From contig JBAPNE010000059.1 in the NCBI GenBank assembly GCA_049278975.1, positions 1 to 53,945 of the forward strand: a stretch of DNA of 53,945 nt. The letters are read 5' to 3'. Below are positions 14,159-42,750 of the stretch, piece after piece (position 1 is the stretch's first letter; the number at the start of each line of letters is the position of its first letter). The translations under genes were made by a program, and so were the position numbers. Origin of the DNA: Candidatus Kryptoniota bacterium (GTDB taxonomy: Bacteria > Bacteroidota > Ignavibacteria > Kryptoniales > JAKASW01). Under the pieces are notes generated by a model. That model saw only the letters and a program-made list of their open reading frames with translations, was not told the DNA's origin and did no database searches.

Positions 14159-14217
14159 AGATGAATCGAAAACGATATGGTACAACAATGACTTTGTATA
14201 CCCGGAATGACATGTAG

Positions 14218-21171: not shown

Positions 21172-21196
21172 GGCGGAGTTTTGAACCTCTCCCTGG

Positions 21197-21217
21197 CCCT
21201 CCCCTTTTAGGGGAGGG
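21197..21217. repeat. CCCTCCCCT-ttt-AGGGGAGGG palindrome (family copy 1)
   Basis: Perfect 9-bp arms. Related copies lie at 21705-21725 (CCTTCCCCT-gtt-AGGGGAAGG), 21788-21802 (TCCCCT-gtt-AGGGGA) and 21861-21875 (CCCCCT-aaa-AGGGGG). Confidence 0.8.
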
Positions 21218-21289
21218 AACGTATCCCCAAATTGTGAGGCGAGGAATAAGTTGTTCCCCTAGCAAAAGCACCGCACTAAATCCTGGTAT

Positions 21290-21317
21290 CCGCCTAAAAG
21301 GGGGATTATAGGGGGTT
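21290..21317 (+). repeat. 28-nt direct repeat, left copy, ending 3 nt before the DUF559 start codon
   Basis: ccgcctaaaagggggattatagggggtt compared with ccccctaaaagggggaccacagggggtt at 21861-21888: 24 of 28 positions identical by eye. Confidence 0.7.
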
Positions 21318-21320
21318 CCT

Positions 21321-21890
21321 ATGCCACGGTACTTCAAATACGCCAAAGGCTCGATTGACAAAGCCAGAAGACTCCGCCGCGCGATGACGGACGCGGAACG
21401 TAAGCTATGGTCGAAGCTGAGAAACGAACAGCTTGGCGTCCAGTTCAGAAGACAAGTCCCCGTCGGTCCTTACATAGTGGATTTTATTTGCATCAAGCGA
21501 GGGCTTGTCATCGAAGTGGACGGCGCTCAGCACTACACCGATGAAGGAATGGAATACGATAAGATTCGCACAACGTATCTGGAGAATGAAGGACTGACCG
21601 TAAAACGGTTCGGTAACCACGACGTGCTGACGAATATTGATGGAGTGGTACGGGAAATACTGGAGTTGCTGGAGAAGCAGGAAATCCGCAAACCTCATCC
21701 TGTCCTTCCCCTGTTAGGGGAAGGAACGAGTTCGCAACCAGCAGAGGAAACCCACTCTTCTGAGGATGAAAACACAAAAACAAACCGTCCCCTGTTAGGG
21801 GAAGGGACGAAATCTTCAAAGTCAAAGAGAGTCCCTGGTAGAGTTCCTGAAATAAACTGTCCCCCTAAAAGGGGGACCACAGGGGGTTGA
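21321..21890 (+). CDS. DUF559 (Vsr-like fold) endonuclease-domain protein with a repeat-derived C-terminal extension
   Basis: ARRLRRAMTDAERKLWSKLRNEQLGVQFRRQVPVGPYIVDFICIKRGLVIEVDGAQH...KRFGNHDV is the typical DUF559 core. Residues after about 120 (PLLGEGT twice, then PPKRGTTGG) are translations of the CCCCT..AGGGG palindromes. Confidence 0.8.
   Translation: MPRYFKYAKGSIDKARRLRRAMTDAERKLWSKLRNEQLGVQFRRQVPVGPYIVDFICIKRGLVIEVDGAQHYTDEGMEYDKIRTTYLENEGLTVKRFGNHDVLTNIDGVVREILELLEKQEIRKPHPVLPLLGEGTSSQPAEETHSSEDENTKTNRPLLGEGTKSSKSKRVPGRVPEINCPPKRGTTGG
21705..21725. repeat. CCTTCCCCT-gtt-AGGGGAAGG palindrome (family copy 2), inside the 3' part of the DUF559 ORF
   Basis: Perfect 9-bp arms with a 3-nt loop, followed by aacgag as in copy 1 (aacgta). 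Confidence 0.8.
21861..21888 (+). repeat. 28-nt direct repeat, right copy, ending at the DUF559 stop codon
   Basis: See 21290-21317. It contains the palindrome CCCCCT-aaa-AGGGGG. Confidence 0.7.
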
Positions 21891-21987
21891 TGAATCGCAT
21901 CGGCAATATATCATGGATAATCCGGCAAAATGGGAATCCGAGAGCAACGAAAATGATGGTATTATGCGGAGGAGTTGAAATAAAGCC

Positions 21988-25661: not shown

Positions 25662-25688
25662 GATTAATATCGATGAAAAACGTTATTT

Positions 25689-25717
25689 AAAAGTCTCATT
25701 TTAACGAAATGACTTTT
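25689..25717 (+). terminator. Imperfect hairpin after hsdS
   Basis: aaaagtctcattt / aaatgactttt with one bulge, followed by an AT-rich tract (ttattat). Confidence 0.35.
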
Positions 25718-25737
25718 ATTATATTATAACTACTTAT

Positions 25738-25765
25738 AATTTAGTTTCGAGCGTGAAACTAAATT
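25738..25765. promoter_or_regulatory. 11-bp perfect inverted repeat AATTTAGTTTC-N6-GAAACTAAATT upstream of fic
   Basis: Read directly. The arm shares AGTTTCGA with the downstream tandem repeats. Confidence 0.45.
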
Positions 25766-25780
25766 ATGGGAATCTATAAT

Positions 25781-25840
25781 AAAGTTTCGATATCGAAAAT
25801 AGAGTTACGATATCACAAATAAAGTTTCAATATCAGAGAA
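25781..25840 (+). promoter_or_regulatory. Three head-to-tail 20-bp repeats (possible operator or iteron-like sites) ending 18 nt before the fic start
   Basis: aaagtttcgatatcgaaaat / agagttacgatatcacaaat / aaagtttcaatatcagagaa, with the core GTTnCnATATC at an exact 20-bp period. Confidence 0.5.
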
Positions 25841-25858
25841 AGTCAAAAATAAGGAAAA

Positions 25859-26992
25859 ATGGACTTCAAAGAGTTCACAGCCGGAACGTACACTCAACAG
25901 TATCAGTACAAGAGCTTCGGCCCATCAACGATAAATCACGAGTGGACGTGGTCTGATCCTAAAATCAATATCCTCCTAGCCGATGCCAGTCGAAAATTGG
26001 GTGAACTTAACGCCTTTGCAGCGTCGGTTCCTGATGTCGACATTTTCGTAAGGATGCATGTGGCGAAAGAAGCGACCAAGTCGAGCGCAATCGAAGGGAC
26101 AAGAACCGAGATCGAAGAGGTTGTTTTGCAGGAACAAGATGTTCTTCCAGAGAAGCGAGACGACTGGAATGAAGTCCAGAATTATATCTCCGCGATGAAC
26201 ACTGCCATTGAACGGCTGAAAGAAATGCCGCTCTCCACCAGAACGTTGAAGGAAACTCATCGTACGCTACTCCAGGATGTCCGGGGAGAACACAAGACTC
26301 CAGGCGAATACCGCACAAGTCAGAATTGGATCGGCGGTGCAACGCTGGATGATGCAACGTTTGTCCCACCTCATCATTCTGAAGTCAATGCGTTGATGGG
26401 TGACCTTGAAAATTTTCTTCACAATCCGAACATCGATGTTCCGAGACTGGTTAGAATTGCGATAGCGCATTATCAGTTTGAAACTATTCATCCGTTCCTC
26501 GACGGCAACGGGAGAATCGGTCGGTTATTAATAACGCTTTATCTTGTGAGTGAAGGGCTTCTCTCTAAACCGACTCTCTATCTCTCTGACCATTTAGAAA
26601 GACACAAGACTTTATATTATGACAATCTCATGCTTGTCAGAACTCGGAACGACATAGGCCAGTGGGTGAAGTTCTTGCTCGCCGCCGTAATGGAGACCTG
26701 CGACAAAGGAATTGAGACCTTCAGAAAAATACTCAAACTGAAAGATGAAATTGAAGGCAATAGGCTTGTGACTCTCGGCAGGAAAACGAAGATTGCGAAG
26801 TCCTTCTTGAATCATCTTTACAGTAATCCTGCTACCGACGTTGCGAGGGTGAAGGAAGTTCTGAACTTGAGTCAAGCATCGGCGAATTCGCTTGTGGCGG
26901 ACTTTGAAAGGCTCGGGATTCTTAAAGAAATCACTGGGTTCAAGCGCAACAGGTACTTTCTGTTTTCGGAATACATAAACCTCTTCAAATAG
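25859..26992 (+). CDS. fic: Fic-domain protein (AMPylase-type) with an N-terminal inhibitory-helix motif and a C-terminal wHTH-like region
   Basis: Fic motif HPFLDGNGRIGR (26489-26524). An SxxxEG motif, SSAIEG, lies at about 26081-26098. The stop is 9 nt before the hsdM ATG. Confidence 0.9.
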   Translation: MDFKEFTAGTYTQQYQYKSFGPSTINHEWTWSDPKINILLADASRKLGELNAFAASVPDVDIFVRMHVAKEATKSSAIEGTRTEIEEVVLQEQDVLPEKRDDWNEVQNYISAMNTAIERLKEMPLSTRTLKETHRTLLQDVRGEHKTPGEYRTSQNWIGGATLDDATFVPPHHSEVNALMGDLENFLHNPNIDVPRLVRIAIAHYQFETIHPFLDGNGRIGRLLITLYLVSEGLLSKPTLYLSDHLERHKTLYYDNLMLVRTRNDIGQWVKFLLAAVMETCDKGIETFRKILKLKDEIEGNRLVTLGRKTKIAKSFLNHLYSNPATDVARVKEVLNLSQASANSLVADFERLGILKEITGFKRNRYFLFSEYINLFK

Positions 26993-27001
26993 CGAATCCA
27001 A

Positions 27002-28471
27002 ATGTCTAATGAATCATCCACGATAGTTCAGCGTCTCTGGAACTACTGCAACGTCCTCCGCGACGACGGCGTAAGCTATGGCGACTACGTCGAGCAGTTG
27101 ACGTATCTCCTTTTCCTCAAGATGGCTGATGAACAAACGAAGCCGCCATTTCGTGTCGGGGCACAGCATGCTGTGCCCATACCAGATGGTCTCGACTGGG
27201 AAAGTCTTATCAAGAAAGACGGCGACGAGCTTGAGGTTCATTACCGACATGTCCTCGATTCTCTCGGCAAGGGATCTGGAATGCTTGGCGTGATATTCAG
27301 AAAATCTCAGAATAGAATTCAAGACCCTGCCAAACTTAAGAGGCTTGTCGAATTGATCAACGATGAGACCTGGATGGGTTTGGACGTCGACATTAAAGGT
27401 GAGATTTACGAAGGCTTGTTGCAGAAGAACGCTGAAGACGTGAAGAGTGGCGCGGGACAGTATTTCACTCCGCGACCGCTGATTAAGGCCATGGTTGATG
27501 TCACTCGTCCTGAATCCATGATGACAATTTGTGACCCCGCATGTGGGACCGGTGGCTTTTTCCTTGCCGCACACAATCACCTTGAGCACAAGCAGCTCGA
27601 CAAGAAACAGAAAGATTTCTTGAAGGCAAAGACTTTCAAAGGCTGGGAGATTGTAGATAGCGCGGCAAGGCTTTGCGTAATGAATCTTTACCTCCATGGC
27701 ATCGGAGGTGAAGAGAGTCCGATTACCGTAGCTGACAGTTTGGCATCGGAACCAAGCGAGCACTTCGATACTGTCCTAACAAATCCGCCTTTCGGCAAGA
27801 AGAGCAGCATCACGATAGTGAATGGAGAAGGAAAGGCCGACAAAGAATCCATCATGTATGAGAGGCAGGACTTTTGGGCTACGACTTCCAACAAACAGCT
27901 AAACTTTCTACAGCACGTGAGATCGCTTCTAAAACAAAATGGGAAAGCAGCAATCGTCGTTCCCGATAATGTTCTCTTTGAAGGCGGTGCAGGCGAGACA
28001 GTCAGGAGAAAGTTATTGCATGATTGCGACGTGCATACACTCCTTAGACTTCCGACTGGTATTTTCTATGCACAAGGTGTGAAAGCAAACGTACTTTTCT
28101 TCGAGAGAAAGCCCGCCAGCGAAAAGCCATGGACTGAGAAACTCTGGATATACGACTTGCGAACGAACACACATTTTACTTTGAAAACGAACACCCTCAA
28201 GTACGAAGACCTCAAAGATTTCATAGACTGTTACAATTCGGACAACCGTCGAGATCGTAAGGAATCCGAGCGGTTCAAAGTATTCACGTATGAAGAGCTT
28301 ATGCAGCGCGATAAAGCCAGTCTCGACATATTCTGGCTGAAGGATGACAGCCTTGAAGACTCCGCGAATCTACCCGACCCCGATGTAATTGCGCAAGACA
28401 TCGCAGAAAATCTTGAGGCTGCGTTAGAGCAGTTCAAGAGCGTTAGGGAAGGACTAGAGAACGGGAAGTAG
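27002..28471 (+). CDS. hsdM: Type I R-M N6-adenine DNA methyltransferase subunit
   Basis: HsdM N-terminal domain LWNYCNVLRDDG...YVEQLTYLLFLKMADE. AdoMet motif DPACGTGGF and catalytic motif TNPPFG. Confidence 0.92.
   Translation: MSNESSTIVQRLWNYCNVLRDDGVSYGDYVEQLTYLLFLKMADEQTKPPFRVGAQHAVPIPDGLDWESLIKKDGDELEVHYRHVLDSLGKGSGMLGVIFRKSQNRIQDPAKLKRLVELINDETWMGLDVDIKGEIYEGLLQKNAEDVKSGAGQYFTPRPLIKAMVDVTRPESMMTICDPACGTGGFFLAAHNHLEHKQLDKKQKDFLKAKTFKGWEIVDSAARLCVMNLYLHGIGGEESPITVADSLASEPSEHFDTVLTNPPFGKKSSITIVNGEGKADKESIMYERQDFWATTSNKQLNFLQHVRSLLKQNGKAAIVVPDNVLFEGGAGETVRRKLLHDCDVHTLLRLPTGIFYAQGVKANVLFFERKPASEKPWTEKLWIYDLRTNTHFTLKTNTLKYEDLKDFIDCYNSDNRRDRKESERFKVFTYEELMQRDKASLDIFWLKDDSLEDSANLPDPDVIAQDIAENLEAALEQFKSVREGLENGK
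27159..27178. repeat. Perfect 20-nt palindrome GGGCACAGCATGCTGTGCCC inside hsdM, read in frame as AQHAVP
   Basis: Read directly. It differs from the hsdS copy only at the symmetric pair G..C versus A..T, so the palindrome is preserved. Confidence 0.9.
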
Positions 28472-31134: not shown

Positions 31135-31268
31135 CCATTGCGAGGAGGGCGACCAGCGAAGCGGACGGACGACGCGGCAATCTCGATCATGGCTGATGGA
31201 CGAAGGGCTTTCTATGTCCGCATCGTGGACAAGTGGAAGATGAGATTGCCTCGCTTTGCTCGCAAAGG
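31135..31268. repeat. Composite long-hairpin repeat of the CATTGCGAG...GGCAATCTC // GAGATTGCC...CTCGCAAAGG type
   Basis: The outer arms ccattgcgag (31135-31144) and ctcgcaaagg (31259-31268) match at 9 of 10 positions. The inner arms ggcaatctc (31176-31184) and gagattgcc (31242-31250) match at 9 of 9. Confidence 0.6.
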
Positions 31269-31333
31269 CGAATTCGTGGCTTATTATCCAAGCTCCGACA
31301 ATACGAGCCACGAAGGAAACAGGAAAGAAACTG

Positions 31334-32098
31334 ATGACCGCATTAGCTGAAGGAAGAGCGCGTGAGCTGCTGAACGCCTACTGTATCAAATCTCCGGAAG
31401 GACTAAAGAACTTAGATGAGATCGCGAACGCCGAGGGTCTAATAGTGGAAGACGCAGACTTAAGTAATTGCCAGGGGAAAATCGCATATGAAGAGACCAT
31501 GGGGCTTATCAAGGTAAGCACTGCTGTACGTGAGCCGGGAGCGAGAAGGTTCGTGATCGCGCATGAGATGGGACACTTCTTTAACGAGAAGTCGAAGCTG
31601 AATAGATGTGCGTCGCAAGATATGCTGCCGGTAAAGTCAAAGAAAGTCGGCGAGGACGATGCAAATGCTTTCGCCGTCGAGCTTTTGATGAAGAAGGAAT
31701 GGTACTCCGAATTCGTGAAGGACAAGGATCCGGGCATCGAAGCCATTAGAAAAGCCGCGGAATACTTCGGAGTTTCGCTCAGCGCGGCTGCAATTCGATA
31801 TTCGCAGGCAGGAAACTTTCCTGTCGCGGTAATCATGACGCATAAGCGTAAAGTGTCCTGGAGTTCAATAAGCGAACTTTTCCCGTACCAGTATGTCGGC
31901 AAACATCATCCTGTCAACAGTTACTCCGAGGCAGAAGCGTTTTATAGCGGAACGAAGGTGGACACTGCGCCTCACTCTGTTCTCGCCGACTCGTGGTTCT
32001 TAGAAGACCGCAGCTTCCGGCGAAACCATTCTCTTGTCGAGCAAATCCTGCCAATGCCGAATTATGATTCGCTGCTCGCGGTTGTGTGGGAGGGGTAG
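31334..32098 (+). CDS. ImmA/IrrE-family (DUF955/COG2856-like) zinc metallopeptidase with an unassigned C-terminal domain
   Basis: HEMGH zinc motif at 31562-31576. The N-terminal part ARELLNAYCIKSPEGLKNLDEIANAEGLIVEDADL is typical of ImmA. I chose the start at ATG 31334, which has an aggaaa RBS; the ORF track starts at 31256, inside the repeat. Confidence 0.75.
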   Translation: MTALAEGRARELLNAYCIKSPEGLKNLDEIANAEGLIVEDADLSNCQGKIAYEETMGLIKVSTAVREPGARRFVIAHEMGHFFNEKSKLNRCASQDMLPVKSKKVGEDDANAFAVELLMKKEWYSEFVKDKDPGIEAIRKAAEYFGVSLSAAAIRYSQAGNFPVAVIMTHKRKVSWSSISELFPYQYVGKHHPVNSYSEAEAFYSGTKVDTAPHSVLADSWFLEDRSFRRNHSLVEQILPMPNYDSLLAVVWEG

Positions 32099-32160
32099 CT
32101 CGCGTCTCATCGATCAGTCATCGCGAAGAACCCCGCCTCGCGGGGTAAACTCCGGCCTGT

Positions 32161-32374
32161 GGCAATCTCAATCTGGTGTACCACCAAGCGACGTGCGAGG
32201 ACTGAGGCTGAGCTTCAGAAGGAGGAAAAGAAAACATAGGTTCCCGCCACGAGCACGCGGGAACGACAGTTGGGTGGTGAGCATCGTCATGGTACTCGTT
32301 TGAATCAAGCGAGTCATGGCCCAGGCAATGAACGGATCGCTACGTGATGCTGAAGCGCCTCTCGCAATGACAGG
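32161..32374. repeat. Composite hairpin-rich repeat, copy B (right border of the accessory segment)
   Basis: Modules in order: ggcaatctc..tgtaccaccaa (32161-32192); hairpin ggTTCCCGc-N-gCGGGAAcgac (32239-32267); ctcgcaatgacagg (32361-32374). A CCCCGC-ctc-GCGGGG hairpin also lies just upstream at 32131-32145. Confidence 0.6.
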
Positions 32375-32526
32375 AGGCTGAAGATGGTAGAGCACCATTC
32401 CTTCGGGCAAGATGATGATCGTATCGCCTGTACCATGAAGCAATAAACTGGCAAGCGACGCTAACACATCTTGTGCCGCAAGTGTGATCTGTCTCTCTCT
32501 GTCTCCAAAAAAGTGTACCACATTGC

Positions 32527-32554
32527 TTGACAATTAATAATAAAGGCTTATATT
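32527..32554 (+). promoter_or_regulatory. Sigma-70-like promoter candidate for the ATP-grasp/GNAT/KamA operon
   Basis: TTGACA (32527-32532), a 16-nt spacer, then TATATT (32549-32554). A 7-bp hairpin, CAATGAA-cgc-TTCATTG, lies at 32564-32580 in the leader. Confidence 0.3.
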
Positions 32555-32642
32555 TAACGCAAGCAATGAACGCTTCATTGACATATCGAAGAGCCTCCTG
32601 CAAGCGGGAGAAGCTCCGGCGAGACAAACTGAAGTCGCACCA

Positions 32643-33737
32643 GTGTCGGAAGACCTTATGAACGTTGCTCTTGTCTTTAACATTAAAAGAGAGAGCACCA
32701 TGGAGGCTGACGCTAATCTTATCTCTTCTCCTTCCAAAACCACCTCAACATCTCAATCGAAACTCTCCTACGAAGGAAAGGTCATCGATAAGTATGCAGA
32801 GTGGGACACCGCCGAGACGATCGACGCCGTAGCCCGCGCTTTATCGCTGTACCACGATGTTACGTTTGTTGAAGCTGACGAGAACGCCTACGACAGGCTT
32901 CGCGGCGGAGAGTTTGACATCGCCTTCAACATCGCCGAAGGGATGAATGGCGTCAGCCGGGAAGCGCAAATCCCCGCCATGCTTGAATTCCTAGGAATAC
33001 CTTATACCGGTTCCGACCCGCTTACTCTGGCAACCTGCCTGGATAAGTCAAGGACAAAAGAAATTTTGAGTTATCACAGGATACCTACTTCGAAATTTGT
33101 CGTTGCAGATTCATTTGAAGAAGCATCGAAAGCATCATTGCGTTACCCACTTTTTGTTAAGCCGCTCCACGAAGGTTCGAGCAAGGGAATCTATAACTCT
33201 TCCTATGTCGTGAACCAAGCAGCGCTCCAAAAAGAAGTTGAACGAATACTAAATGATTACGAGCAGCCCGCACTTGTAGAAGAATACTTGCCCGGGAGGG
33301 AATTCACCGTAGCACTGCTTGGTAATGGGAATGAATTGAAAGTCCTGCCACCCGTTGAAATAACTTTCGATTCACTGCCATCAGAGGCACTGCCTGTTTA
33401 TTCTTATGAGGCCAAATGGCTTTGGGATACAAAAGATTCCCCTATTGAAGTTTTCAAATGTCCGGCACCAATCAGCGATTCTCTGAACACAAAAATTGAG
33501 AATGTGTGCAGGAAGGCATTTGAAGTTCTAAATTGCCGCGACTGGAGCAGGATTGATGTGCGCCTTGATGCTGAAGGCGAGCCTAATATAATCGAAATCA
33601 ATCCGCTGCCAGGAATTTTACCAGATCCGGAAGAGCATTCATGTTTCCCGATGGCTTCGAGAGCCGCGGGCCTGGACTATGGTCAAATGATGAATGCGGT
33701 CCTAGATGCGGCAATCAAGAGAATAGGTAAGTCATAG
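32643..33737 (+). CDS. ATP-grasp ligase of the D-alanine--D-alanine ligase family (paralog 1)
   Basis: Overall Ddl-like pattern: FNIAEG..G.SREAQIPAMLEFLGIPYTGSDPLTLATCLDKSRTKEIL, PLFVKPLHEGSSKGI, EEYLPGREFTVALLGN and IEINPLPG. The start is more likely ATG 32658 (MNVALVFNIK) than GTG 32643. Confidence 0.8.
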   Translation: MSEDLMNVALVFNIKRESTMEADANLISSPSKTTSTSQSKLSYEGKVIDKYAEWDTAETIDAVARALSLYHDVTFVEADENAYDRLRGGEFDIAFNIAEGMNGVSREAQIPAMLEFLGIPYTGSDPLTLATCLDKSRTKEILSYHRIPTSKFVVADSFEEASKASLRYPLFVKPLHEGSSKGIYNSSYVVNQAALQKEVERILNDYEQPALVEEYLPGREFTVALLGNGNELKVLPPVEITFDSLPSEALPVYSYEAKWLWDTKDSPIEVFKCPAPISDSLNTKIENVCRKAFEVLNCRDWSRIDVRLDAEGEPNIIEINPLPGILPDPEEHSCFPMASRAAGLDYGQMMNAVLDAAIKRIGKS

Positions 33738-33778
33738 CTCGTAACTTATTGTGCATGTTTAACTTATAAAGGCGGCTT

Positions 33779-34873
33779 ATGTCAAGAAAATTACCACGTA
33801 GCGGAATCCAAGAGACGGGAAAAAAGCTTTGTGTTGTCTATGACGAGGCGGCGTTAGACATCAGATCGGAACTTGAATTAGCTTTTAATGGAAAACTATC
33901 TTCCGAGGCAACAGCTTCATTGATTGATACTTCCACAACGAGTGTCATCGAGCAAGTCGATACAGTGGTGTCGGTATTATCCGAAGCCGGTTATAATGTT
34001 TCGACAATCATCACAAGCTCGGATATGAAACAGCTTATCCATAAGCTTCGCGAAGAAAAACCCGACATGATCTTTAACTTCTGCGAATCTATCGAAGGTG
34101 ATTCTTTCCAGGAAATGAACGTTGCAGGTTTGTATGAGCTGCTTCGATTGCAATATACCGGAAGCAGCCCTCTCACACTTGGAAGCTGCTTGAATAAGGT
34201 GAGAACAAAAGAGATTTTAACTTTCCATAAAATAAATGTACCATCCTATCGGGTTTTTAATTCGCCCGATGAAGTGTCGAGAAAAAAAATAGGATTTCCT
34301 GCGATTGCAAAACCGATACATGAAGATGCGAGCATCGGTATTTCAAATGTTTCTGTTGTATATGATCGTGACCACTTACAGGTCTTGCTTGCCGACATGC
34401 TGAAGAAATTCAAACAGCCGATCCTTGTCGAGCAATTTGTAGATGGAAGGGAGTTTAATGTTGCGATCGTCGGAAATGATGAGGTCGTCGCGCTTCCCGT
34501 TTCCGAAATAGATTTTAGTACCATGCCTTCAGGTTTTCATCACATTGTTTCGTATGAAGCAAAGTGGATGCCCGATAGTGTGGAATACAAATCAACGGTG
34601 CCGATTTGTCCTGCAAAAATAAGTCGTCGGCTCGAACAGAAAATTCAGAATACTGCAATCAAAGCCTATCAGGCGATGAGATGCAGAGACTACGCCAGAG
34701 TTGATATGAGAGTCGATAAAACAGGAAAGGTATTCATATTGGAAGTGAATCCAAATCCTGACCTATCGCCAACCGGTTCGGGCTTTTCTAGAAGCGCCGC
34801 GGCATTCGGCTGGTCTTACAGCCAGCTCATAAATAATATTGTCCAATCAGCTTTTAAGAGAAGGCTTGGTTAG
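33779..34873 (+). CDS. ATP-grasp ligase of the D-alanine--D-alanine ligase family (paralog 2)
   Basis: Same architecture: FNFCESIEGDSFQEMNVAGLYELLRLQYTGSSPLTLGSCLNKVRTKEIL, AIAKPIHEDASIGI, EQFVDGREFNVAIVGN and LEVNPNPD. Confidence 0.8.
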   Translation: MSRKLPRSGIQETGKKLCVVYDEAALDIRSELELAFNGKLSSEATASLIDTSTTSVIEQVDTVVSVLSEAGYNVSTIITSSDMKQLIHKLREEKPDMIFNFCESIEGDSFQEMNVAGLYELLRLQYTGSSPLTLGSCLNKVRTKEILTFHKINVPSYRVFNSPDEVSRKKIGFPAIAKPIHEDASIGISNVSVVYDRDHLQVLLADMLKKFKQPILVEQFVDGREFNVAIVGNDEVVALPVSEIDFSTMPSGFHHIVSYEAKWMPDSVEYKSTVPICPAKISRRLEQKIQNTAIKAYQAMRCRDYARVDMRVDKTGKVFILEVNPNPDLSPTGSGFSRSAAAFGWSYSQLINNIVQSAFKRRLG

Positions 34874-35345
34874 GATCCGACCCACTATCCGGGAAGATCA
34901 CGGCTCTATCCTGGACATCCTGAAGAGGACAGATAATTTCACGGCAGAAGAAATAGAAATTGCTGATGAACTATTGAACACGTACTTCACTCAATCTTTT
35001 GAGAGCGGATACTGGACTTACACGGCAGCGAATGATAAAATTGCAGGCTATATATGTTACGGACCTACGCCTTTGACAGTCGGGACCTACGACATTTATT
35101 GGATCGCTGTTGATCCGGCTCTGCAGGGGAAGGGGATCGGAACTGAATTATTAAATTTTGCCGAAGACGATATATCGAAGCACAAGGGAAGGTTGATAAC
35201 GGTTTATACGAGTTCGCAGGAGAAATATTCTCTAACACGGAGTTTTTATTTCAAACGAGATTATCACGAAGGTGCGAGGATAAGTGATTATTATCGGCCG
35301 GGAGATGATCTCGTAATATATGTTAAACAAATATCGGAGGACTAA
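34839..35345 (+). CDS. GNAT-family N-acetyltransferase
   Basis: Acetyl-CoA motif A, IAVDPALQGKGIGTELLNFAEDD. The ORF overlaps the upstream gene's 3' end; an alternative TTG start lies at 34866. Confidence 0.75.
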   Translation: MSNQLLREGLVRIRPTIREDHGSILDILKRTDNFTAEEIEIADELLNTYFTQSFESGYWTYTAANDKIAGYICYGPTPLTVGTYDIYWIAVDPALQGKGIGTELLNFAEDDISKHKGRLITVYTSSQEKYSLTRSFYFKRDYHEGARISDYYRPGDDLVIYVKQISED

Positions 35346-35348
35346 TTT

Positions 35349-36557
35349 ATGGAACTGTGGCAGCAGATGCTGAGGCAGAGTATCGATAGCGCTGATGACC
35401 TTGTCAAAAAATTCAACTTTGATAAAGAGACTGCCGAAAGGCTTAACAGCCTTTTCCACATCAGAATCAATCCGTACTATTTAAATCTCATTCGTTACCC
35501 GGGTGACCCGATCTGGCTTCAAAGTATTCCCGATGGGAAAGAACTTGAAGAAGATGGTTTGCCCTTGGATCCGCTGAATGAGGACAACGATAGCCCGGTT
35601 CCAAGTATTACGCACCGTTATCCCGATAGAGTTTTATTTCTTGTTACGAGCCAGTGCTCGATGTACTGCAGGTTCTGCACAAGAAAAAGAAAAGTCAGTG
35701 ACTCGACGAAGATCAGCATGAAGTACATCCAGGATGGCTTGGATTATATCAAAGCGCATACTGAAGTCAGAGACGTTATCGTTTCCGGCGGCGATCCGCT
35801 TATGCTGACCGATGTCATGCTGGAGAAGGTGCTTAAAGGTCTCCGAGAAATTCCGCACGTCGAAATAATTCGCGTGCATACAAAGATGCCGTGCGTGCTG
35901 CCGCAAAGGATTACGCCGCAGCTTGTTGAAATGATGAAGAAGTATCATCCCATTTATGTCAACGTCCATTTTAATCATCCGTGGGAATGCACTCCTGAAG
36001 CAAAACAAGCGTGTGATCTTCTTGCGAACGCCGGTTTCCCGCTCGGCAATCAGATGGTGTTGATGAAAGGCGTCAATGACGATCCGGAAGTCGTCAAGGA
36101 ACTTAATCGCAAGCTGCTCATGATGCGAGTGAAACCATATTACATTTATCAGGCAGATATGGTAAAGAGCACGAATCATTTCAGGACTCCGATTCGCGTC
36201 GGACTAGAAATCATGGACAAGCTGCGCGGCCACACTTCGGGACTCGCGGTCCCATATTTTGTAATCGACGCTCCCGGCGGCGGCGGCAAAATTCCGATTC
36301 TCCCACAGTATGTGCTGTACCATGATGACGAGAAAATGGTCGTCCGCAATTATAAGTACGAAGTTTTCGAGTATGCCGAGGCAAAAGATGAACAGGAACC
36401 TGTTCACGACGATATTGATTCTCGCTTCTTAAGAAAATCACCTGTTGTCATCAGGGAGAGAAAGCGGAGAATTTCTAAACCGAATACTAGAGCAAATGTA
36501 AAAGTAGAATTAGAAAAGCAGTCGCTTGTCGACGAAACCGTAAGCGAAAAAGAATAG
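35349..36557 (+). CDS. KamA-family radical-SAM aminomutase (lysine 2,3-aminomutase-like)
   Basis: The CSMYCRFCTRKR CxxxCxxC cluster, with family-typical ITHRYPDRVLFLVT, VIVSGGDPL, VNVHFNHP and YYIYQAD. The ATG lies 3 nt after the GNAT stop. Confidence 0.88.
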   Translation: MELWQQMLRQSIDSADDLVKKFNFDKETAERLNSLFHIRINPYYLNLIRYPGDPIWLQSIPDGKELEEDGLPLDPLNEDNDSPVPSITHRYPDRVLFLVTSQCSMYCRFCTRKRKVSDSTKISMKYIQDGLDYIKAHTEVRDVIVSGGDPLMLTDVMLEKVLKGLREIPHVEIIRVHTKMPCVLPQRITPQLVEMMKKYHPIYVNVHFNHPWECTPEAKQACDLLANAGFPLGNQMVLMKGVNDDPEVVKELNRKLLMMRVKPYYIYQADMVKSTNHFRTPIRVGLEIMDKLRGHTSGLAVPYFVIDAPGGGGKIPILPQYVLYHDDEKMVVRNYKYEVFEYAEAKDEQEPVHDDIDSRFLRKSPVVIRERKRRISKPNTRANVKVELEKQSLVDETVSEKE

Positions 36558-36568
36558 ATTTCTGGTTT

Positions 36569-36591
36569 GTGCCGGAGTTCACCTCCGGCAC
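36569..36591 (+). terminator. Stem-loop terminator candidate after the aminomutase gene
   Basis: GTGCCGGAG-ttcac-CTCCGGCAC, a perfect 9-bp stem starting 12 nt after the stop. Only a weak T-run follows (tgaactttt). Confidence 0.55.
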
Positions 36592-36610
36592 TGAACTTTT
36601 CCTAAGAAGT

Positions 36611-36708
36611 TGTCATTGCAACGAGCAATTCGACGAAGCAATCTCGTCTTTCATAGGAGCTAATGGATAAGTAGAGGCTGAGATTACTTTCCTTCGTTCG
36701 CGACGACA
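36611..36708. repeat. Degenerate copy of the CATTGC...GCAATCTC // GAGATT... composite hairpin repeat
   Basis: tgtcattgcaacgagcaattcgacgaagcaatctc (36611-36645) and gagattactttccttcgttcgcgacgaca (36680-36708). Confidence 0.5.
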
Positions 36709-36862
36709 GCTCAGGTAAACTGCTATCGGCAAAGTCATTGCTCCCTCGCCACTGCCGCAGTCGGTGGGTCTCTACTTCGTGTTAAAGTAAACTCCTAAGA
36801 ACATTCCTCTCTCTTCACATCAAGTTTCTCGCTTGGGAACCTCAAATTCGCCATAATTGGAA

Positions 36863-36948
36863 AAAGTTTTGCAATAACTGCCGATAACTTTATTTGAGGT
36901 TAGCATTTACTAAAGTTCGTGCAAGAATTACCGATAATTCTATTTGAG
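36863..36948 (+). promoter_or_regulatory. Two direct repeats of about 36 nt, 50 nt apart, upstream of the 1246-aa gene
   Basis: aaagttttgcaataactgccgataactttatttgagg compared with aaagttcgtgcaagaattaccgataattctatttgaga, sharing the core CCGATAAnTnTATTTGAG. Confidence 0.45.
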
Positions 36949-37005
36949 AAGCTGAATAGCGCCTCATAAAGGGGCAAGGATGCCCTAATCATTAATCATA
37001 AACAC

Positions 37006-40000
37006 ATGGAGGTAGTTATGTGTAAATTTAGGTTTAGTGTTTTCTTCCTTTTGTTGTTTTGGGGTGCATTAGCATATGCACAACCGGTGCTACAAGTGCC
37101 TACAAAAACAACCACAACTTTTTTAACCACAAGACATCCAACATTTAAATGGAGTCAAGTGTTAAGTGCTACTTCGGGATACGAAATCTATATTACAACG
37201 TCTACCGCAGATACAACTCTTGCAAACAGAGCATCGGTTCCTGCTGCGGCAAGTGTGAACAAATCAGATAGATATGTATCCGTGGGAGCAGCGGCAACAG
37301 ACACAACCTATACTTTGGCTGACACACTTTTGTTGAAGAATACAATTTATTTCTGGAAAGTCAGAGTAAAGGGAGGAACATGGGCATATCCATATTCCTA
37401 TTTTAAAATCGGTGCGCCGGTATACACGATGTCTAATGCGAATGCATGGATTCAATTTAATCACGATACCTTGGGTGCTATTACAGGCGTTAAGTACGTG
37501 CAAGGATCGGGTCAAGAGATATTGGACACTGCCTACAATGCGACGAATCTATATGGAATAGGAGGCAATGGTGCTCAAAAAGATACGGTAATATCATGGT
37601 ACACTTCCGCGAATACCGACACGAATATTTTCACATATCAAAATGCCACAAAATATGGAATGACCGGTTCAAAGGTTATGACAGTTTCCCGTGGGACGAA
37701 TGGTATTACGGCAAATATAGCCCTAACACTTGAAACTGGAAAAGCTGTAAACATAGCAACAGCATGGAAACCCGGTGGCGATGTTAGCGGCTCTGGTATT
37801 GACAATGTCCTGTTGGTAAAAAATTCGCCTGTTAAGACACCGTTAACTTATCCATCAAGTGCAGCGTGGTTTGGTGCTGATAGTATTACTTTATCAGCGA
37901 TGTATGACAATAGGTACAATGAATATTTTGGGATCAAGTCATCCTCACTTGTTGCAGTTACGGACACTCAAAAGACAGGTATGTTGAAACAAGTATTGTC
38001 TTTTAACAATACAACAGGATCAAATGCAACATATACATTCGGTTTTGCTGTGCGGAATTCAAGACTTAATTATTTTGATACGTGGGCTAATGACAGGCCG
38101 ATGATTATATCAAAACCGGCAGCGGGCGATTCTTTAACATCCACAAGTAAAAAGATAGTTTGGGAATCGTTTGGTGCGAGTCCGTCTTCTATTAGCTTTT
38201 CTAGTGATGGTGGAACGACGTTTGGCAATAGTGCAACTATTGTGACGGATACCAGTTCAATTGACAGCGTTTCGTATACTATGCCTAGTGGTCCACCCCG
38301 AAATACTTGCGTGGTGGAACTATCAACATCCAAAGGCGATGTAGCCCAGTCTGGTGTCTTTAAACTCGTTGCACCTTATGCGGCTATTACTTCTCCGAAG
38401 ACAGGTGACAGCTTAACAATAGGCCAACATGAAATTAAGTGGGTCAATCAAGTTGGTGATATACTTACTAACGCTGCTTTTTCTTTGGATTCAGGAAAAA
38501 CATGGTCCGGAGCAATTTCGCTCAGTACAGCGGACACGACAAATGATAGCGTGTCGTTTAACTTTTATGGTGCAAAGAACGTATCTAATTATGCTGCTGT
38601 AAAAGTTTACGGCTCGACCGATACGATAGTATCGTCATTTTTCAAAGTCGAAAAGCGTTACGCTACTGTTACCACTCCGGCATCTGGTGCTAGTTTGTCA
38701 ATTGGCAAGAGTTATGTCGTTTGGACTAACTTAACAGGTTCTGCCGTTACCTACGTTGATTGTTCCTTGGACTCAGGAAAAACGTGGGTTGGGCCAGACA
38801 CTCTAAGTCCAGTGTCAACAGCAACCAAAGACAGCGTGTTATATGATTTCCTTGGTGGAAAAACTTCTTCGAGCAATACTGCGGTAAGGATTCGCACGAC
38901 TGCCGGAGCTGACACAGCACAATCAGGTTTCTTTACTTTAGGAAACGGCGGTGCGGTATTCTCCATTCCCACCGTTATTGGTAATCCTGGCGCAGCCGTA
39001 GTTGTCTCGATTAGAGCCAAAGATTATATGTCGGGTGACTCAATTAAATCATTTGATGTCGACATGACATTTGACACTACATATGCCCATTTCGATTCCT
39101 TGAATTATGCTCCTCTGTTGCTGGGTAACAACTGGATAACAACGATGGATTCGAGCAATTATAAAACTACGACCGCAAATTATGTGAGGTTAGCTGGTTT
39201 TATGTATCAAGGTAAGGGAATCAAAGATTCTGCGATTGCTGAACTGTTCTTTACAATAAAGAATAAACAGTCTATTATTGGGAGTACAAGTTCGCTCGTA
39301 TTAAAAAATTCGGTTCTTGCTGCTTCCGGCAATGGTGCATACTCATTGGATGTTTCCGGTTCAACGAATGGCACTCTTAAAATCTATTCAAGTATCTCAG
39401 GAAGCCTTCATTACTTGCATGAGGATACTATAGCAGCTAGTTATAATATATCCGGAGATAATTTGATAGTCTATCGCGATTTTGCCGATACGCTGAATAA
39501 CACATCGTTCGACGTTGCTAGTGGACAATTCGATTTGACGAATAGAGAGCCGAACGATAGCATCACTTTCTGTCCTTCCGCAAGCATCTATACGACGGCT
39601 GGCTGGAATTCTATTACTGTCGCTGACGCAAGGCTTGCTTTCTTGGATTTCTATGACACTCTTAGCGCTCGAGCAAAAATTGCAGCGGATGTCAATGGAG
39701 ATGGAGTTGTCAATGCAACTGATGCCCAGGCAATCATGGAAATCTCGGTTGATTCGACATATCTAAAAGGGATTGGTCTATCTAATTGGATATTTATCGA
39801 TTCAACATCCCTCGTGGGCTTTGAACATGCAAGTGATTCAATGACAGCATGGTACACAGGACAACAACACTCTGATTCTTATACACTGACAAGCCAACGG
39901 ACACATCAAGATTTCTTTGGTGTATTACGTGGAAATGTCACTTTCAGTTATGGCAGTACACAGGATGTTAATACAGCGAAGACAATGAAGAATCCAATGG

Positions 40001-40746
40001 AGAGAACAAATTCTTCCAGTCCTATATTATTTAGCACAAATGCTAATATTAATGTTCGTCCTGGAGACACAGTGTGGATTCCTTTAAATATTAATCCTGG
40101 TGATACCGTCATAGGTGGTTTCAACGCGAGCATGCAAGTGGACCCGAAGATTTTGAACTATACTGGTCAATTCAAAATGGGTCAAACCATGCCGCAAAAT
40201 AAAAATTGGTTCACCGCTGCTAAAAGCGATGCCAAGGGTAATTTGAGAGTAGCCTCAACAGACTTTTCTACCGTTATTACTCCGATTGTAAATAATGGAA
40301 CAGCACTTCTGTTTGAGTTTGTTGTGAGCAAGAATGTCCAGCTTGGAACTTCTAGCTCTATTGCGATCCAGACGCAGTCTGTAGTCGATACGAAAATGCG
40401 CAAGATCGCAAGTCTGACAGAGAGCGGGCAAGTACAAATTTCAAGTATGGGATCGGCAGTTGCCACACACTACGAACTGTCACAGAATTATCCGAACCCA
40501 TTCAATCCATCGACAACAATTCAATTTGCTGTACCGATGGACAGTAAAGTGGACATCGTCATATACAATATCCTCGGTCAAAAAGTAGCCACGCTGGTTA
40601 GTGGAACTATAACCGCGGGTTATCACGATATAGTATGGAATGCAACCAACTATAGTTCGGGAGTTTACTTCTCTGTGATGAAAGGTTCTTCTCTCTCTAC
40701 TGGAGAAAGTTTCAAAATGGTGAAGAAACTTATGCTTGTGAAGTAG
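37006..40746 (+). CDS. Large secreted protein (1246 aa) with three Asp-box-containing repeats, two cohesin-like modules, a dockerin-like EF-hand segment and a T9SS C-terminal sorting domain
   Basis: Signal peptide FRFSVFFLLLFWGALAYAQ. Three repeats of about 90 aa each carry S(S/L)D(G/S)G(T/K)TW. Cohesin-like segments are AVFSIPTVIGNPGAAVVVSIRAKD...FDVDMTFD and VRPGDTVWIPLNINPGD..GGFNASMQVD. ADVNGDGVVNATDAQAIMEISVD is dockerin-like. The tail is LSQNYPNPFNPSTTIQF...GVYFSV...KKLMLVK. Confidence 0.8.
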   Translation: MEVVMCKFRFSVFFLLLFWGALAYAQPVLQVPTKTTTTFLTTRHPTFKWSQVLSATSGYEIYITTSTADTTLANRASVPAAASVNKSDRYVSVGAAATDTTYTLADTLLLKNTIYFWKVRVKGGTWAYPYSYFKIGAPVYTMSNANAWIQFNHDTLGAITGVKYVQGSGQEILDTAYNATNLYGIGGNGAQKDTVISWYTSANTDTNIFTYQNATKYGMTGSKVMTVSRGTNGITANIALTLETGKAVNIATAWKPGGDVSGSGIDNVLLVKNSPVKTPLTYPSSAAWFGADSITLSAMYDNRYNEYFGIKSSSLVAVTDTQKTGMLKQVLSFNNTTGSNATYTFGFAVRNSRLNYFDTWANDRPMIISKPAAGDSLTSTSKKIVWESFGASPSSISFSSDGGTTFGNSATIVTDTSSIDSVSYTMPSGPPRNTCVVELSTSKGDVAQSGVFKLVAPYAAITSPKTGDSLTIGQHEIKWVNQVGDILTNAAFSLDSGKTWSGAISLSTADTTNDSVSFNFYGAKNVSNYAAVKVYGSTDTIVSSFFKVEKRYATVTTPASGASLSIGKSYVVWTNLTGSAVTYVDCSLDSGKTWVGPDTLSPVSTATKDSVLYDFLGGKTSSSNTAVRIRTTAGADTAQSGFFTLGNGGAVFSIPTVIGNPGAAVVVSIRAKDYMSGDSIKSFDVDMTFDTTYAHFDSLNYAPLLLGNNWITTMDSSNYKTTTANYVRLAGFMYQGKGIKDSAIAELFFTIKNKQSIIGSTSSLVLKNSVLAASGNGAYSLDVSGSTNGTLKIYSSISGSLHYLHEDTIAASYNISGDNLIVYRDFADTLNNTSFDVASGQFDLTNREPNDSITFCPSASIYTTAGWNSITVADARLAFLDFYDTLSARAKIAADVNGDGVVNATDAQAIMEISVDSTYLKGIGLSNWIFIDSTSLVGFEHASDSMTAWYTGQQHSDSYTLTSQRTHQDFFGVLRGNVTFSYGSTQDVNTAKTMKNPMERTNSSSPILFSTNANINVRPGDTVWIPLNINPGDTVIGGFNASMQVDPKILNYTGQFKMGQTMPQNKNWFTAAKSDAKGNLRVASTDFSTVITPIVNNGTALLFEFVVSKNVQLGTSSSIAIQTQSVVDTKMRKIASLTESGQVQISSMGSAVATHYELSQNYPNPFNPSTTIQFAVPMDSKVDIVIYNILGQKVATLVSGTITAGYHDIVWNATNYSSGVYFSVMKGSSLSTGESFKMVKKLMLVK

Positions 40747-40777
40747 ATAATTAGTAGATAATCACAAGTAAGCATCT

Positions 40778-40816
40778 AAAAGGTGCACGATTCATCGGGA
40801 ATTGTGCACCTTTTTT
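40778..40816 (+). terminator. Rho-independent terminator
   Basis: aaaaGGTGCAC-N15-GTGCACCtttttt, about 30 nt after the stop. Confidence 0.75.
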
Positions 40817-40974
40817 GTTGTTTATGATCCCGCGCTGGAACTATCGCTTTCTCAACTTGAGACACGGTTACAAAAACGTTTGGTGGATTTGCGAACTGTG
40901 ATCAATTTATGTATAATAATTACCTCAATAGAGAATTAGAATGAAACTTCTCGTGTTTAGCAAAAAGGGTTGCC

Positions 40975-42750
40975 GTGAAAAATTTTAAATTTGTTGCTGT
41001 CACAATCGCGATTTGTACCACTATATGTCAAGCTCAAGTTCATGTTCCCGATTGGGCGAAGAAAGCCGTTTGGTATCAGATCTTTCCCGAGCGGTTCCGC
41101 AATGGAGATTCCACAAATGATCCCACTGCGAGCGACGCACAAGTTACCGGCCGTGATTGGCACATATCTCCATGGACGGGCGATTGGTACAAGTTGCAGC
41201 CCTGGGAAGAAACATTTTCAAATAAATTCTACGACGTTGTTTTCGACAGGAGATACGGCGGGGATTTAGAAGGAGTCATCGACGAATTGCCGTATCTAAG
41301 GAATCTTGGGATCAACTCGATCTATCTCAATCCTATATTTGAATCGCCGTCGCTACACAAGTACAACACGGCGACTTACATTCATGTAGATCATAACTTT
41401 GGGCCGGATCCCGCGGGCGATTTGAAAATTATGTCTGAAGAAAACCCTGCTGATCCTTCAACATGGAAGTGGACTTCCGCGGATAAAGAGTTTTTAAAAC
41501 TTGTGAAGAAAGCCCACGAGCTGGGAATACGGGTGATCATCGACGGCGTGTTCAACCATGTGGGCACAGACTTCTGGGCGTTCAAAGATGTCGTGAAGTA
41601 TCAGCAGAAGTCGAAGTATAAAGATTGGTTTGTAATTAAGAACTGGGATGATTCTGTAAAGGGGACTAAGTTTGATTACAATGGCTGGTGGGGAATTAAG
41701 TCATTGCCGGTTTTCAGGAAAGATTCCATCACAGGCCTTGTGCATGGTCCCTACGAACACATCATGGAAATAACGAAGCGGTGGATGGCACCAAATGGAA
41801 ATCCTAAAGATGGTGTCAACGGATGGCGTTTAGATGTCCCAAACGAGGTACCACATCCCTTTTGGAGAAACTGGCGGAAGCTTGTGAAGAGCATTAATCC
41901 TGAGGCATATTTGGTCGGTGAAATATGGGACACCGCGACACCATGGCTGCAAGGCGATGAGTTCGATGCGGTGATGAATTATCAATTTGCAAAGACTGTC
42001 GTGAAATTTTTCATTAACAAAAAGCTGGCGATTACTCCAGTACAATTTGACTCGACTCTAAAGGCGGTTCGTGATTCGTATCCCGACAGTGTCAACTACG
42101 CAATGCAAAATCTCTTAGACAGCCACGATACCGACCGACTTGAGTCTATGATCGCAAATCCCGATCGCGATTACAACTCCGGTGACAGCCCAAGGAATAA
42201 TCCACAATACAATATTTCTAAACCAGACGCAGCCGCGATTCAACACCAAGAGTTGATCGTCCTTTTCCAGATGACGTATGTGGGTGCACCGATGATTTAT
42301 TACGGAGATGAAGCAGGGATGTGGGGCGCAACCGACCCTGATGAAAGGAAACCGATGTTGTGGCCGGATTTGAAATATGAAGACGAGAAAAGCAGTCCAG
42401 TATCTGAAATTAGTAGGTCGGATGACAAAAACATTTTCAATAAAAGTCTGTTCGATTACTATAGGAAGCTGGTATATGAGCGCGAATCAAATTCGGCGCT
42501 GACTATCGGCAGTTACAAAACTCTCATCGCTGACAATTTGAAAAAAGTATTTGTGTTCGAAAGGGAATCAGGGAATCAAATTGCGATTGTCGGATTCAAT
42601 TTGTCAGGTGCGAGACAAGTTGTGGATGTACCTTTGGATAAAGAAGTGAAGGCGTTCAGAGACGTGATAAGCTCGAAAATTTTAACTGTGAAGAATGGTA
42701 CATTGCATATCGAAATAAATTCTAACCGGGGTGTCTTACTCGCGAATTAA
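40975..42750 (+). CDS. GH13 alpha-amylase-family enzyme (neopullulanase/cyclomaltodextrinase-like), secreted
   Basis: Signal peptide VKNFKFVAVTIAICTTICQAQ from a GTG start. Motifs include WYQIFPERFRNGD, region I DGVFNHVG, region II NGWRLDVPNEV, region III LVGEIWD and region IV LLDSHDTDR. Confidence 0.85.
   Translation: MKNFKFVAVTIAICTTICQAQVHVPDWAKKAVWYQIFPERFRNGDSTNDPTASDAQVTGRDWHISPWTGDWYKLQPWEETFSNKFYDVVFDRRYGGDLEGVIDELPYLRNLGINSIYLNPIFESPSLHKYNTATYIHVDHNFGPDPAGDLKIMSEENPADPSTWKWTSADKEFLKLVKKAHELGIRVIIDGVFNHVGTDFWAFKDVVKYQQKSKYKDWFVIKNWDDSVKGTKFDYNGWWGIKSLPVFRKDSITGLVHGPYEHIMEITKRWMAPNGNPKDGVNGWRLDVPNEVPHPFWRNWRKLVKSINPEAYLVGEIWDTATPWLQGDEFDAVMNYQFAKTVVKFFINKKLAITPVQFDSTLKAVRDSYPDSVNYAMQNLLDSHDTDRLESMIANPDRDYNSGDSPRNNPQYNISKPDAAAIQHQELIVLFQMTYVGAPMIYYGDEAGMWGATDPDERKPMLWPDLKYEDEKSSPVSEISRSDDKNIFNKSLFDYYRKLVYERESNSALTIGSYKTLIADNLKKVFVFERESGNQIAIVGFNLSGARQVVDVPLDKEVKAFRDVISSKILTVKNGTLHIEINSNRGVLLAN

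Follow-up and report, generated by a model that had tools for sequence, protein, structure and literature searches.

A conserved four-gene module combining a predicted lysine 2,3-aminomutase, two Ddl-derived ATP-grasp ligases and a small GNAT acetyltransferase in Candidatus Kryptoniota and other bacteria

Introduction

This study concerns a compact group of four genes on contig JBAPNE010000059.1 of Candidatus Kryptoniota, encoding two paralogous ATP-grasp ligases (A and B), a small GNAT acetyltransferase and a radical-SAM aminomutase of the KamA family. The DNA analyzed, referred to as the window, is a stretch of 53,945 nucleotides (nt) of this contig, and coordinates count along it. Aminomutases of the lysine type make beta-lysine, which serves bacteria and archaea mainly as an osmolyte precursor, an intermediate of lysine fermentation, a modifier of elongation factor P (EF-P) and a building block of a few antibiotics. 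Full-text literature searches found no description of the four-gene module. We address its organization, its distribution across bacterial lineages, the state of its catalytic and substrate-binding residues, and the small-molecule pathway that it may encode.

Organization of the Locus

The four genes lie on the forward strand in the order ligase A (32643-33737), ligase B (33779-34873), GNAT (34839-35345) and KamA (35349-36557). An earlier sequence-only reading of this DNA had proposed four same-strand genes here, and open reading frames (ORFs) are indeed found at all of these positions. Ligase A probably starts at either ATG 32658 or GTG 32643. The gene call for ligase A on a related contig (L001), expressed in window coordinates, starts at 32700, a choice that was rejected because a conserved N-terminal strand lies upstream of it. 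Contig L001 carries an identical KamA protein and matches the window only from 32726 on (L001:758-1518 compared with window 31966-32726); upstream of the match, a reverse-transcriptase (RVT_1) ORF replaces the 5' end of ligase A, which could reflect a mobile-element insertion or an assembly chimera. The relatives of the GNAT start at the equivalent of TTG 34866, so that the gene shares 8 nt with the end of ligase B; this start, giving a protein of 159 amino acids (aa), is the likely one in the window. With KamA beginning 3 nt past the GNAT stop, the GNAT gene does overlap or abut both of its neighbors, as had been proposed.

Upstream of ligase A, the promoter-like element TTGACA-N16-TATATT noted earlier is present at 32527-32554, where it matches 11 of 12 positions and is the top sigma-70-like site within 32000-37100. 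It is embedded in about 70 nt of forward-strand non-coding DNA (32514-32585) that is near-invariant in four Kryptoniota genomes, while the adjacent DNA is 72-77% identical. A short way past the -10 hexamer lies a 7-bp palindrome, CAATGAA-cgc-TTCATTG (32564-32580), a candidate for an operator or a 5' RNA hairpin that has no second copy in the window. The conserved block as a whole is thus a putative promoter and leader region. At the other end, 12 nt past the KamA stop, the predicted 9-bp stem-loop is found at 36569-36591 on the forward strand (GTGCCGGAG/CTCCGGCAC). This GC-rich hairpin folds as RNA at -20.6 kcal/mol (z = -5.6), with none of 200 shuffled sequences folding as well. It probably serves as a terminator; its T-tract is weak, and the terminator scan did not list it because just four T residues follow the stem. 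Rfam at its gathering thresholds gave no riboswitch or leader RNA match on the window or on nine module loci. The GC content of the module is similar to that of the DNA around it, and no mur- or ftsQ-type gene was seen among the larger ORFs of the window, in agreement with the view that these ligases sit far from any such context.

Two Ddl-Derived Ligases with Altered Substrate Sites

Both ligases match the Pfam Dala_Dala_lig_C/ATP-grasp families with E-values of about 2e-38 (2.2e-38 for A with Dala_Dala_lig_C), and their nearest structures are D-alanine-D-alanine ligases (Ddl), at E-values of 1e-29 to 1e-34. They are 39% identical to each other over about 308 residues, so that the proposal of two paralogous, Ddl-like enzymes is borne out. 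Against the best Ddl model, A scores 192 bits and B 175.6 bits where the cut-off is 243, and both fall below every Ddl cut-off.

A comparison of residues explains how the two enzymes may differ from Ddl. For this purpose, 60 A-type proteins, 74 B-type proteins and 16 lone paralogs were aligned with E. coli DdlB, with the numbering checked against the 4zqi alignment. The residues K97, K144, E180, E187, K215, R255, D257, E270 and N272 (DdlB numbering) are 100% conserved in A and B, which therefore keep the full set of ATP/Mg and transition-state residues. The substrate site is different. The changes H63E and Y216W are found in all of the aligned proteins, A-type, B-type and lone paralogs; A is further distinguished by E68R and L282C, and B by S150A, L282G and G276D, the last lying within an invariant NPNPD motif. 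The N-terminal region around Ddl E15 aligns poorly in both, with conserved acidic residues nearby, and a loss of E15 is therefore not claimed. Because the ATP/Mg and transition-state residues are intact and the substrate sites are changed, A and B are, judging from their sequences, very probably active carboxylate-amine ligases with substrates other than D-alanine. The acidic residues gained at the substrate sites (E63 in A and B, D276 in B) would fit cationic substrates such as beta-lysine.

The candidate identity of A or B as the housekeeping Ddl was considered and rejected on the scores below cut-off and the several substituted substrate residues; neither ligase looks like the housekeeping copy. 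Besides A and B, Ignavibacteria possess a third, B-like paralog, and all three have the non-Ddl residues. This lone paralog has the NPNPD motif and intact catalytic residues (L076:5449-8050, and at loci L047, L057, L066 and L086), and it always diverges from two genes, one for an isochorismatase-family protein and one for a protein of 278 aa that matches Peptidase_C39_2 weakly. It may belong to a separate or recycling system.

An Aminomutase of the Lysine Type

The fourth gene encodes a protein with the Pfam domains Radical_SAM and LAM_C, which is predicted to be a radical-SAM, pyridoxal-phosphate (PLP)-dependent lysine 2,3-aminomutase. It aligns with the lysine 2,3-aminomutase of Clostridium subterminale (2A5H) at an E-value of 1.2e-116 and keeps the equivalents of C125, C129, C132, R134, D293, D330 and K337, the numbering having been cross-checked against the tool alignment. 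We take these residues to be the CxxxCxxC radical-SAM cluster, the PLP lysine (K337), and the lysine-binding R134 with the Asp pair D293/D330. The cluster motif CSMYCRFCTRK reported from the sequence is found at KamA residues 103-113. In lysine 2,3-aminomutase, two aspartates hold the epsilon-ammonium group of lysine, and Ruzicka and Frey are said to have described in 2007 that this Asp pair is replaced in glutamate 2,3-aminomutase. The cluster and the residues of the lysine pocket are conserved in 58 relatives from the FCB group (Ignavibacteriota and Kryptoniota), 8 from Deltaproteobacteria and 3 from Chloroflexi.

The NCBIfam models give a graded picture. The window protein passes the KamA subfamily model (305.8 bits, cut-off 199.2), and among the equivalog models its highest score is to AblA, the lysine 2,3-aminomutase (455.1 bits, below the cut-off of 525.4). 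It also falls below the cut-offs for glutamate 2,3-aminomutase (426.2 against 650), arginine 2,3-aminomutase (327.4 against 600) and EpmB (237.7 against 369.3). The other KamA proteins of the FCB group score 453-473 bits with the AblA model and a deltaproteobacterial module member just passes it at 526.0, while relatives reach 237-262 bits with the EpmB model. The aminomutase thus does not group with EpmB, which the sequence-only reading had named as an outcome that would speak against its proposal. Because the lysine-pocket residues are kept and the AblA score is the highest among the equivalog models, KamA is, on sequence criteria, assigned as a lysine-type aminomutase of its own clade and not as EpmB. 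Identification as EpmB or as glutamate or arginine 2,3-aminomutase was rejected on the model scores together with the pocket residues.

The Lys/Arg-rich C-terminal extension noted earlier is real. It spans residues of about 345-402 (window 36380-36557) and contains no cysteines. FCB-group, deltaproteobacterial and Chloroflexi members of the module have tails of similar character whose sequences are not conserved.

The GNAT and a Deacetylase-like Partner

The GNAT matches Pfam Acetyltransf_1. In the NCBIfam scan it had no match to the AblB model, and its only matches were RimI (43.7 bits, cut-off 86.4) and PRK03624. With phmmer it matches PDB entry 2R7H at an E-value of 4.9e-30 over residues 10-155. 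The predicted model of the protein (predicted local distance difference test score 92.7) is placed by Foldseek on 2R7H with a TM-score of 0.96 and a root-mean-square deviation of 1.0. From sequence and predicted structure alike, it is therefore assigned to the 2R7H (Dde_3044) subfamily. Entry 2R7H is Dde_3044 of Desulfovibrio G20, released in 2007 by depositors who gave no tested function. Beyond 2R7H, the Foldseek matches are generic GNATs, including PaiA, RimI, AAC(6'), and the tabtoxin and phosphinothricin acetyltransferases.

Some lineages add a deacetylase-like partner to the module. It is present in Desulfovibrio mangrovi, in Woeseia, on contig L096 and near a Dehalococcoidia locus. Its domain matches acetylpolyamine amidohydrolases with E-values of 1e-64 to 1e-66, compared to about 1e-33 for single-domain protein deacetylases. 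The first match is much the better one, which speaks for a small-molecule substrate with an N-acetyl-aminoalkyl end, as in N-epsilon-acetyl-beta-lysine. As a side observation, the partner is a fusion of about 580 aa, in which a weakly GNAT-like N-terminal domain of about 250 aa precedes the acetylpolyamine-amidohydrolase-like domain (L092:8629-10386 and L096:6268-8004).

Conservation, Gene Order and Natural Fusions

To determine how widely the module occurs, a profile of ligase B was scanned against a collection with one genome per species. Relatives of ligase B are encoded at no fewer than 594 loci (at least 594). The best 80 of these belong to Ignavibacteriota, Kryptoniota, metagenome-assembled genomes (MAGs) labelled 'Bacteroidota', the cultured Rosettibacter primus, and Deltaproteobacteria/Thermodesulfobacteriota. 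The four window proteins were then mapped onto every fetched locus by tblastn. All four genes are present in 59 fetched loci, and 56 of the 59 show the order A-B-GNAT-KamA. These 56 loci are from the FCB group, and the median gaps between their genes are -4 to 18 nt. Compared with the window proteins, KamA is about 70-75%, A 52-60%, B 41-48% and the GNAT 40-52% identical. In Ignavibacteria the module is flanked by recG and dnaG, and within Ignavibacteriota and Kryptoniota it looks vertically inherited.

In other lineages the genes are rearranged. Dehalococcoidia loci have the order KamA-A-B-GNAT with overlapping genes. The complete genome of D. mangrovi has a sigma-54 activator gene, then KamA-A-B-GNAT, and then a 585-aa protein with a histone-deacetylase-family domain. 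A 3.7-Mb contig, one of two unassigned contigs that carry the rearranged set, has the order KamA-A-B-deacetylase-GNAT, and a Woeseia MAG has the same gene set with B fragmented. Ligase A precedes B in every four-gene case, the rearranged lineages included. Deltaproteobacterial MAGs show a variant in which KamA and B are adjacent, an A-type gene lies about 5 kb upstream and no GNAT is nearby.

An exhaustive search of the GNAT against 1.84 billion representative proteins gave 60 relatives at E <= 1e-30. Among the best 150 relatives, 25 are proteins of 490-545 aa in which the GNAT is C-terminal. Pfam places a Ddl-type ATP-grasp domain at the N-terminus of all four fusion proteins scanned, and in the one aligned to the window proteins this domain is B-type, with the NPNPD motif. 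The cluster is thus conserved elsewhere, in the same order across the FCB group and rearranged in other lineages, a point on which the original proposal depended. Because the arrangement is kept in dozens of species, it is not a chance juxtaposition, and the linkage that survives rearrangement, together with the fusions of B with the GNAT, indicates that the genes form a functional unit. Neither these fusions nor the deacetylase-like partner had been anticipated in the sequence-only reading, and both add support to it.

In several Ignavibacteria and in Dehalococcoidia, genes for amino-acid permeases are found no more than a few kb from the module (L003-L008 and L089-L091). These permeases are just about 25% identical to one another, and the linkage is perhaps due to chance.

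Comparison with Known Systems

A first precedent is AblA/AblB, which makes N-epsilon-acetyl-beta-lysine in methanogens and some bacteria. The two systems are alike in the KamA-type enzyme adjoining a GNAT and in the retained lysine-binding residues. They differ in that the GNAT of the module is smaller and of a different subfamily (159 aa, 2R7H-like), that two obligatory ATP-grasp ligases are added, with an acetylpolyamine-amidohydrolase-like enzyme in some lineages, and that the KamA of the window scores too low for the AblA cut-off and is without the far C-terminal part. With no AblB-model match in its GNAT, the module is not a plain ablAB system, as had been supposed from the start.

A second precedent is N-acetylglutaminylglutamine amide (NAGGN), which, as reportedly described by Sagot et al. 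in 2010, is made by Ngg, a bifunctional GNAT and ATP-grasp protein, with AsnO. The likeness is one of logic: in both cases N-acetylation by acetyl-CoA is coupled to a peptide bond made by an ATP-grasp enzyme, and natural ATP-grasp and GNAT fusions (490-545 aa) exist. However, NAGGN involves no beta-amino acid or aminomutase, and the ATP-grasp domains of the module are Ddl-derived. No AsnO-like or asparagine-synthase-like neighbor was seen among the Pfam matches at the inspected loci. The module belongs to neither the AblA/AblB nor the NAGGN family.

The remaining systems share single components. The Ddl/VanA family has the same fold and the full ATP/Mg and transition-state residue set, whereas the module ligases are below all Ddl cut-offs, show substrate-site changes and have no mur/ftsQ context. 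In EpmB/EpmA, a KamA-family enzyme likewise supplies beta-lysine to an ATP-dependent ligase, and the module KamA, too, is without the far C-terminal domain; but the module ligases are ATP-grasp enzymes and not LysRS-like, and the EpmB score is low (237.7 where 369.3 is needed). The yodT-yodS-yodR-yodQ-yodP-kamA operon of Bacillus subtilis combines KamA, a GNAT and a deacetylase. That operon has an AblB-like GNAT (YodP) and a deacetylase of the M20 type, not of the histone deacetylase/acetylpolyamine amidohydrolase type, and it includes no ATP-grasp ligases.

A Proposed Pathway to N-Acetylated Beta-Lysine Peptides

Taken together, we consider it somewhat better than an even bet that the module is a dedicated small-molecule pathway built around beta-lysine, yielding an N-acetylated beta-lysine peptide. 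KamA would convert L-lysine to beta-lysine by radical-SAM/PLP chemistry. Ligases A and B would each form one ATP-dependent amide bond through an acyl-phosphate intermediate, acting sequentially or as a heteromer. The GNAT would acetylate a primary amine, on either beta-lysine or its peptide and most likely at the epsilon-aminoalkyl end, in a step closely coupled to ligase B. The pathway would thus end in a di- or tripeptide that contains beta-lysine and is N-acetylated, from which the acetylpolyamine-amidohydrolase-like enzyme, where present, would remove the acetyl group again, so that acetylation could act as a protecting group or a recycling handle. Family membership and residue conservation are observed; the functions beyond them, including the order of the steps, the position of the acetyl group, the co-substrates and the role, are inferred.

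Our guess for the role is a cytoplasmic solute or a nitrogen-rich reserve in anaerobes, not an antibiotic. A physiological metabolite is preferred over an antibiotic because of the apparent vertical inheritance, the housekeeping neighbors and the lack of an exporter. A hint of nitrogen-linked control comes from sigma-54 motifs of the -24/-12 type upstream of KamA in two lineages, namely D. mangrovi (L092:4457-4472, TGGCAT-N5-TTGCT), where an enhancer-binding-protein gene is directly upstream of KamA, and contig L096 (L096:2495-2510, TGGCAC-N5-TTGCT). Such motifs were found in 2 of the 12 upstream regions scanned, and none was found in the window.

Several observations weigh against this pathway. 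The KamA of the window is below the AblA equivalog cut-off (455.1 against 525.4 bits). Nor does it have the far C-terminal part of canonical lysine 2,3-aminomutase: the last aligned residue of 2A5H is 368 of 416, only positions 1-69 of the 127 in Pfam LAM_C are covered, and a full C-terminal multimerization domain is not present. Loss of the C-terminal domain is a trait of EpmB/YjeK (PMC2821294). The fold neighbors of the GNAT model span protein N-terminal (RimI), polyamine and aminoglycoside acetyltransferases, and would not fix its substrate class. No deacetylase was seen within about 7 kb at the FCB-group loci or among the larger ORFs of the window, and the deltaproteobacterial variants are without a nearby GNAT; because of these two points, the core chemistry may not require acetylation. 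Groundwater, soil and hot springs are the source of many hosts, so that a role in salt stress gains no obvious support from habitat. Finally, the literature searches turned up no experiment on any member of the module.

Alternative Explanations

The chemistry admits other outcomes, of which one is that the ligases act iteratively. The product would then be a beta-lysine oligomer or polymer, a nitrogen-rich reserve or polycation with a logic like that of cyanophycin, which the GNAT caps or neutralizes and the amidohydrolase mobilizes. Two distinct ligases that always occur together, A and then B, would suit one backbone and one branch bond, the sigma-54-type motifs of D. mangrovi and L096 with the adjacent enhancer-binding-protein gene of D. 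mangrovi fit nitrogen-linked control, and amino-acid permease genes are near several loci. Yet Ddl-type ATP-grasp enzymes are known as single-turnover dipeptide ligases, no consistently linked degrading peptidase was seen in the loci inspected, and the sigma-54 motifs are confined to 2 of the 12 upstream regions, so that we regard a polymer as unlikely. Slightly less probable again is a bioactive peptide, an antibiotic or a signal, for which acetylation and deacetylation would provide self-protection and activation. Blasticidin S-type pathways do combine an aminomutase with an ATP-grasp ligase, a GNAT with a deacetylase is a classical pro-drug arrangement, and the fold neighbors of the GNAT include the tabtoxin and phosphinothricin resistance acetyltransferases. 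Against this stand the apparent vertical conservation across Ignavibacteriota and Kryptoniota, with KamA about 70-75% identical, the recG-dnaG setting in Ignavibacteria, a GC content like that of the surrounding DNA, and the lack of any linked exporter, immunity gene, or non-ribosomal peptide synthetase or polyketide synthase gene.

The target of the ligases might also be a protein. They would then attach beta-lysine as an ATP-grasp counterpart of EpmA, which beta-lysylates EF-P, or of RimK-like tailing of ribosomal proteins, with the GNAT and deacetylase acting on the modified protein. The absence of the far C-terminal part in the KamA proteins is a feature of YjeK (PMC2821294), and the K/R-rich tails in three lineages, the purely RimI-like NCBIfam matches of the GNAT and an rRNA-methyltransferase-like gene after the pair at a deltaproteobacterial locus could be read in the same sense. 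We nevertheless hold protein modification to be improbable: the EpmB score of KamA is far under the cut-off, no efp or epmA gene was seen among the neighbors at the loci inspected, both ligases descend from Ddl, a small-molecule ligase, and not from the RimK or TTL families, and the partner deacetylase is closest to acetylpolyamine amidohydrolases. The simplest account would make KamA and the GNAT an ordinary N-epsilon-acetyl-beta-lysine osmolyte pair, with the Ddl-like genes as cell-wall D-Ala-D-Ala (or variant) ligases that merely lie alongside. A KamA beside a GNAT is the AblA/AblB pattern, and several sources annotate the ligases as 'D-alanine-D-alanine ligase'. The GNAT, however, does not match the AblB model, the ligases are under every Ddl cut-off with Y216, H63, L282, G276 and S150 changed, and the linkage survives rearrangement across distant lineages and is sealed in B and GNAT fusions. 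A coincidental neighborhood of this kind is very improbable and is effectively excluded, and the dedicated beta-lysine peptide pathway is the reading that we retain.

Genomic Surroundings in the Window

Upstream of the module, a type I restriction-modification locus occupies window positions 18418-28471. It consists of hsdR (18418-21171), the gene for the specificity subunit (24210-25661) and that for the methylase (27002-28471), with DUF559, KAP-family NTPase and Fic genes breaking up the series, and is followed by short unannotated ORFs and an ImmA/IrrE-type peptidase (31256-32098). The 18418-28471 region looks like a defense or mobile island inserted just upstream of the module. The regions 436-16698 and 37006-42750 hold genes of starch utilization and type IX secretion, including a PorV-like protein, CBM20, two alpha-amylases, Por_Secre_tail proteins, an ABC sugar transporter and an MFS transporter. 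Three further ORFs, at 436-4140 (1234 aa), 52315-53940 (541 aa) and 48506-49219 (237 aa), have no Pfam match.

Significance

There is, in our estimate, about an even chance that the module defines an unrecognized class of metabolites, N-acetylated beta-lysine peptides or short oligomers, made by KamA, two Ddl-derived ligases and a GNAT, with or without the acetylpolyamine-amidohydrolase-like deacetylase, and spread through Ignavibacteriota, Kryptoniota, Dehalococcoidia, Desulfovibrio and at least one Woeseia MAG. If so, the coupling of beta-lysine synthesis to two peptide-forming ligases would be a new fate of beta-lysine, in lineages that are widespread, mostly anaerobic and largely uncultured. 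Hundreds of genes that at present carry the annotation 'D-alanine-D-alanine ligase' or 'RimI-like acetylase' would gain a function, as would, for the first time, the 2R7H GNAT family and a large orphan branch of the Ddl family, and the crystal structure 2R7H would gain a context. With cultured carriers at hand in Desulfovibrio mangrovi, Oleidesulfovibrio alaskensis G20 and Rosettibacter primus, the question is directly testable.

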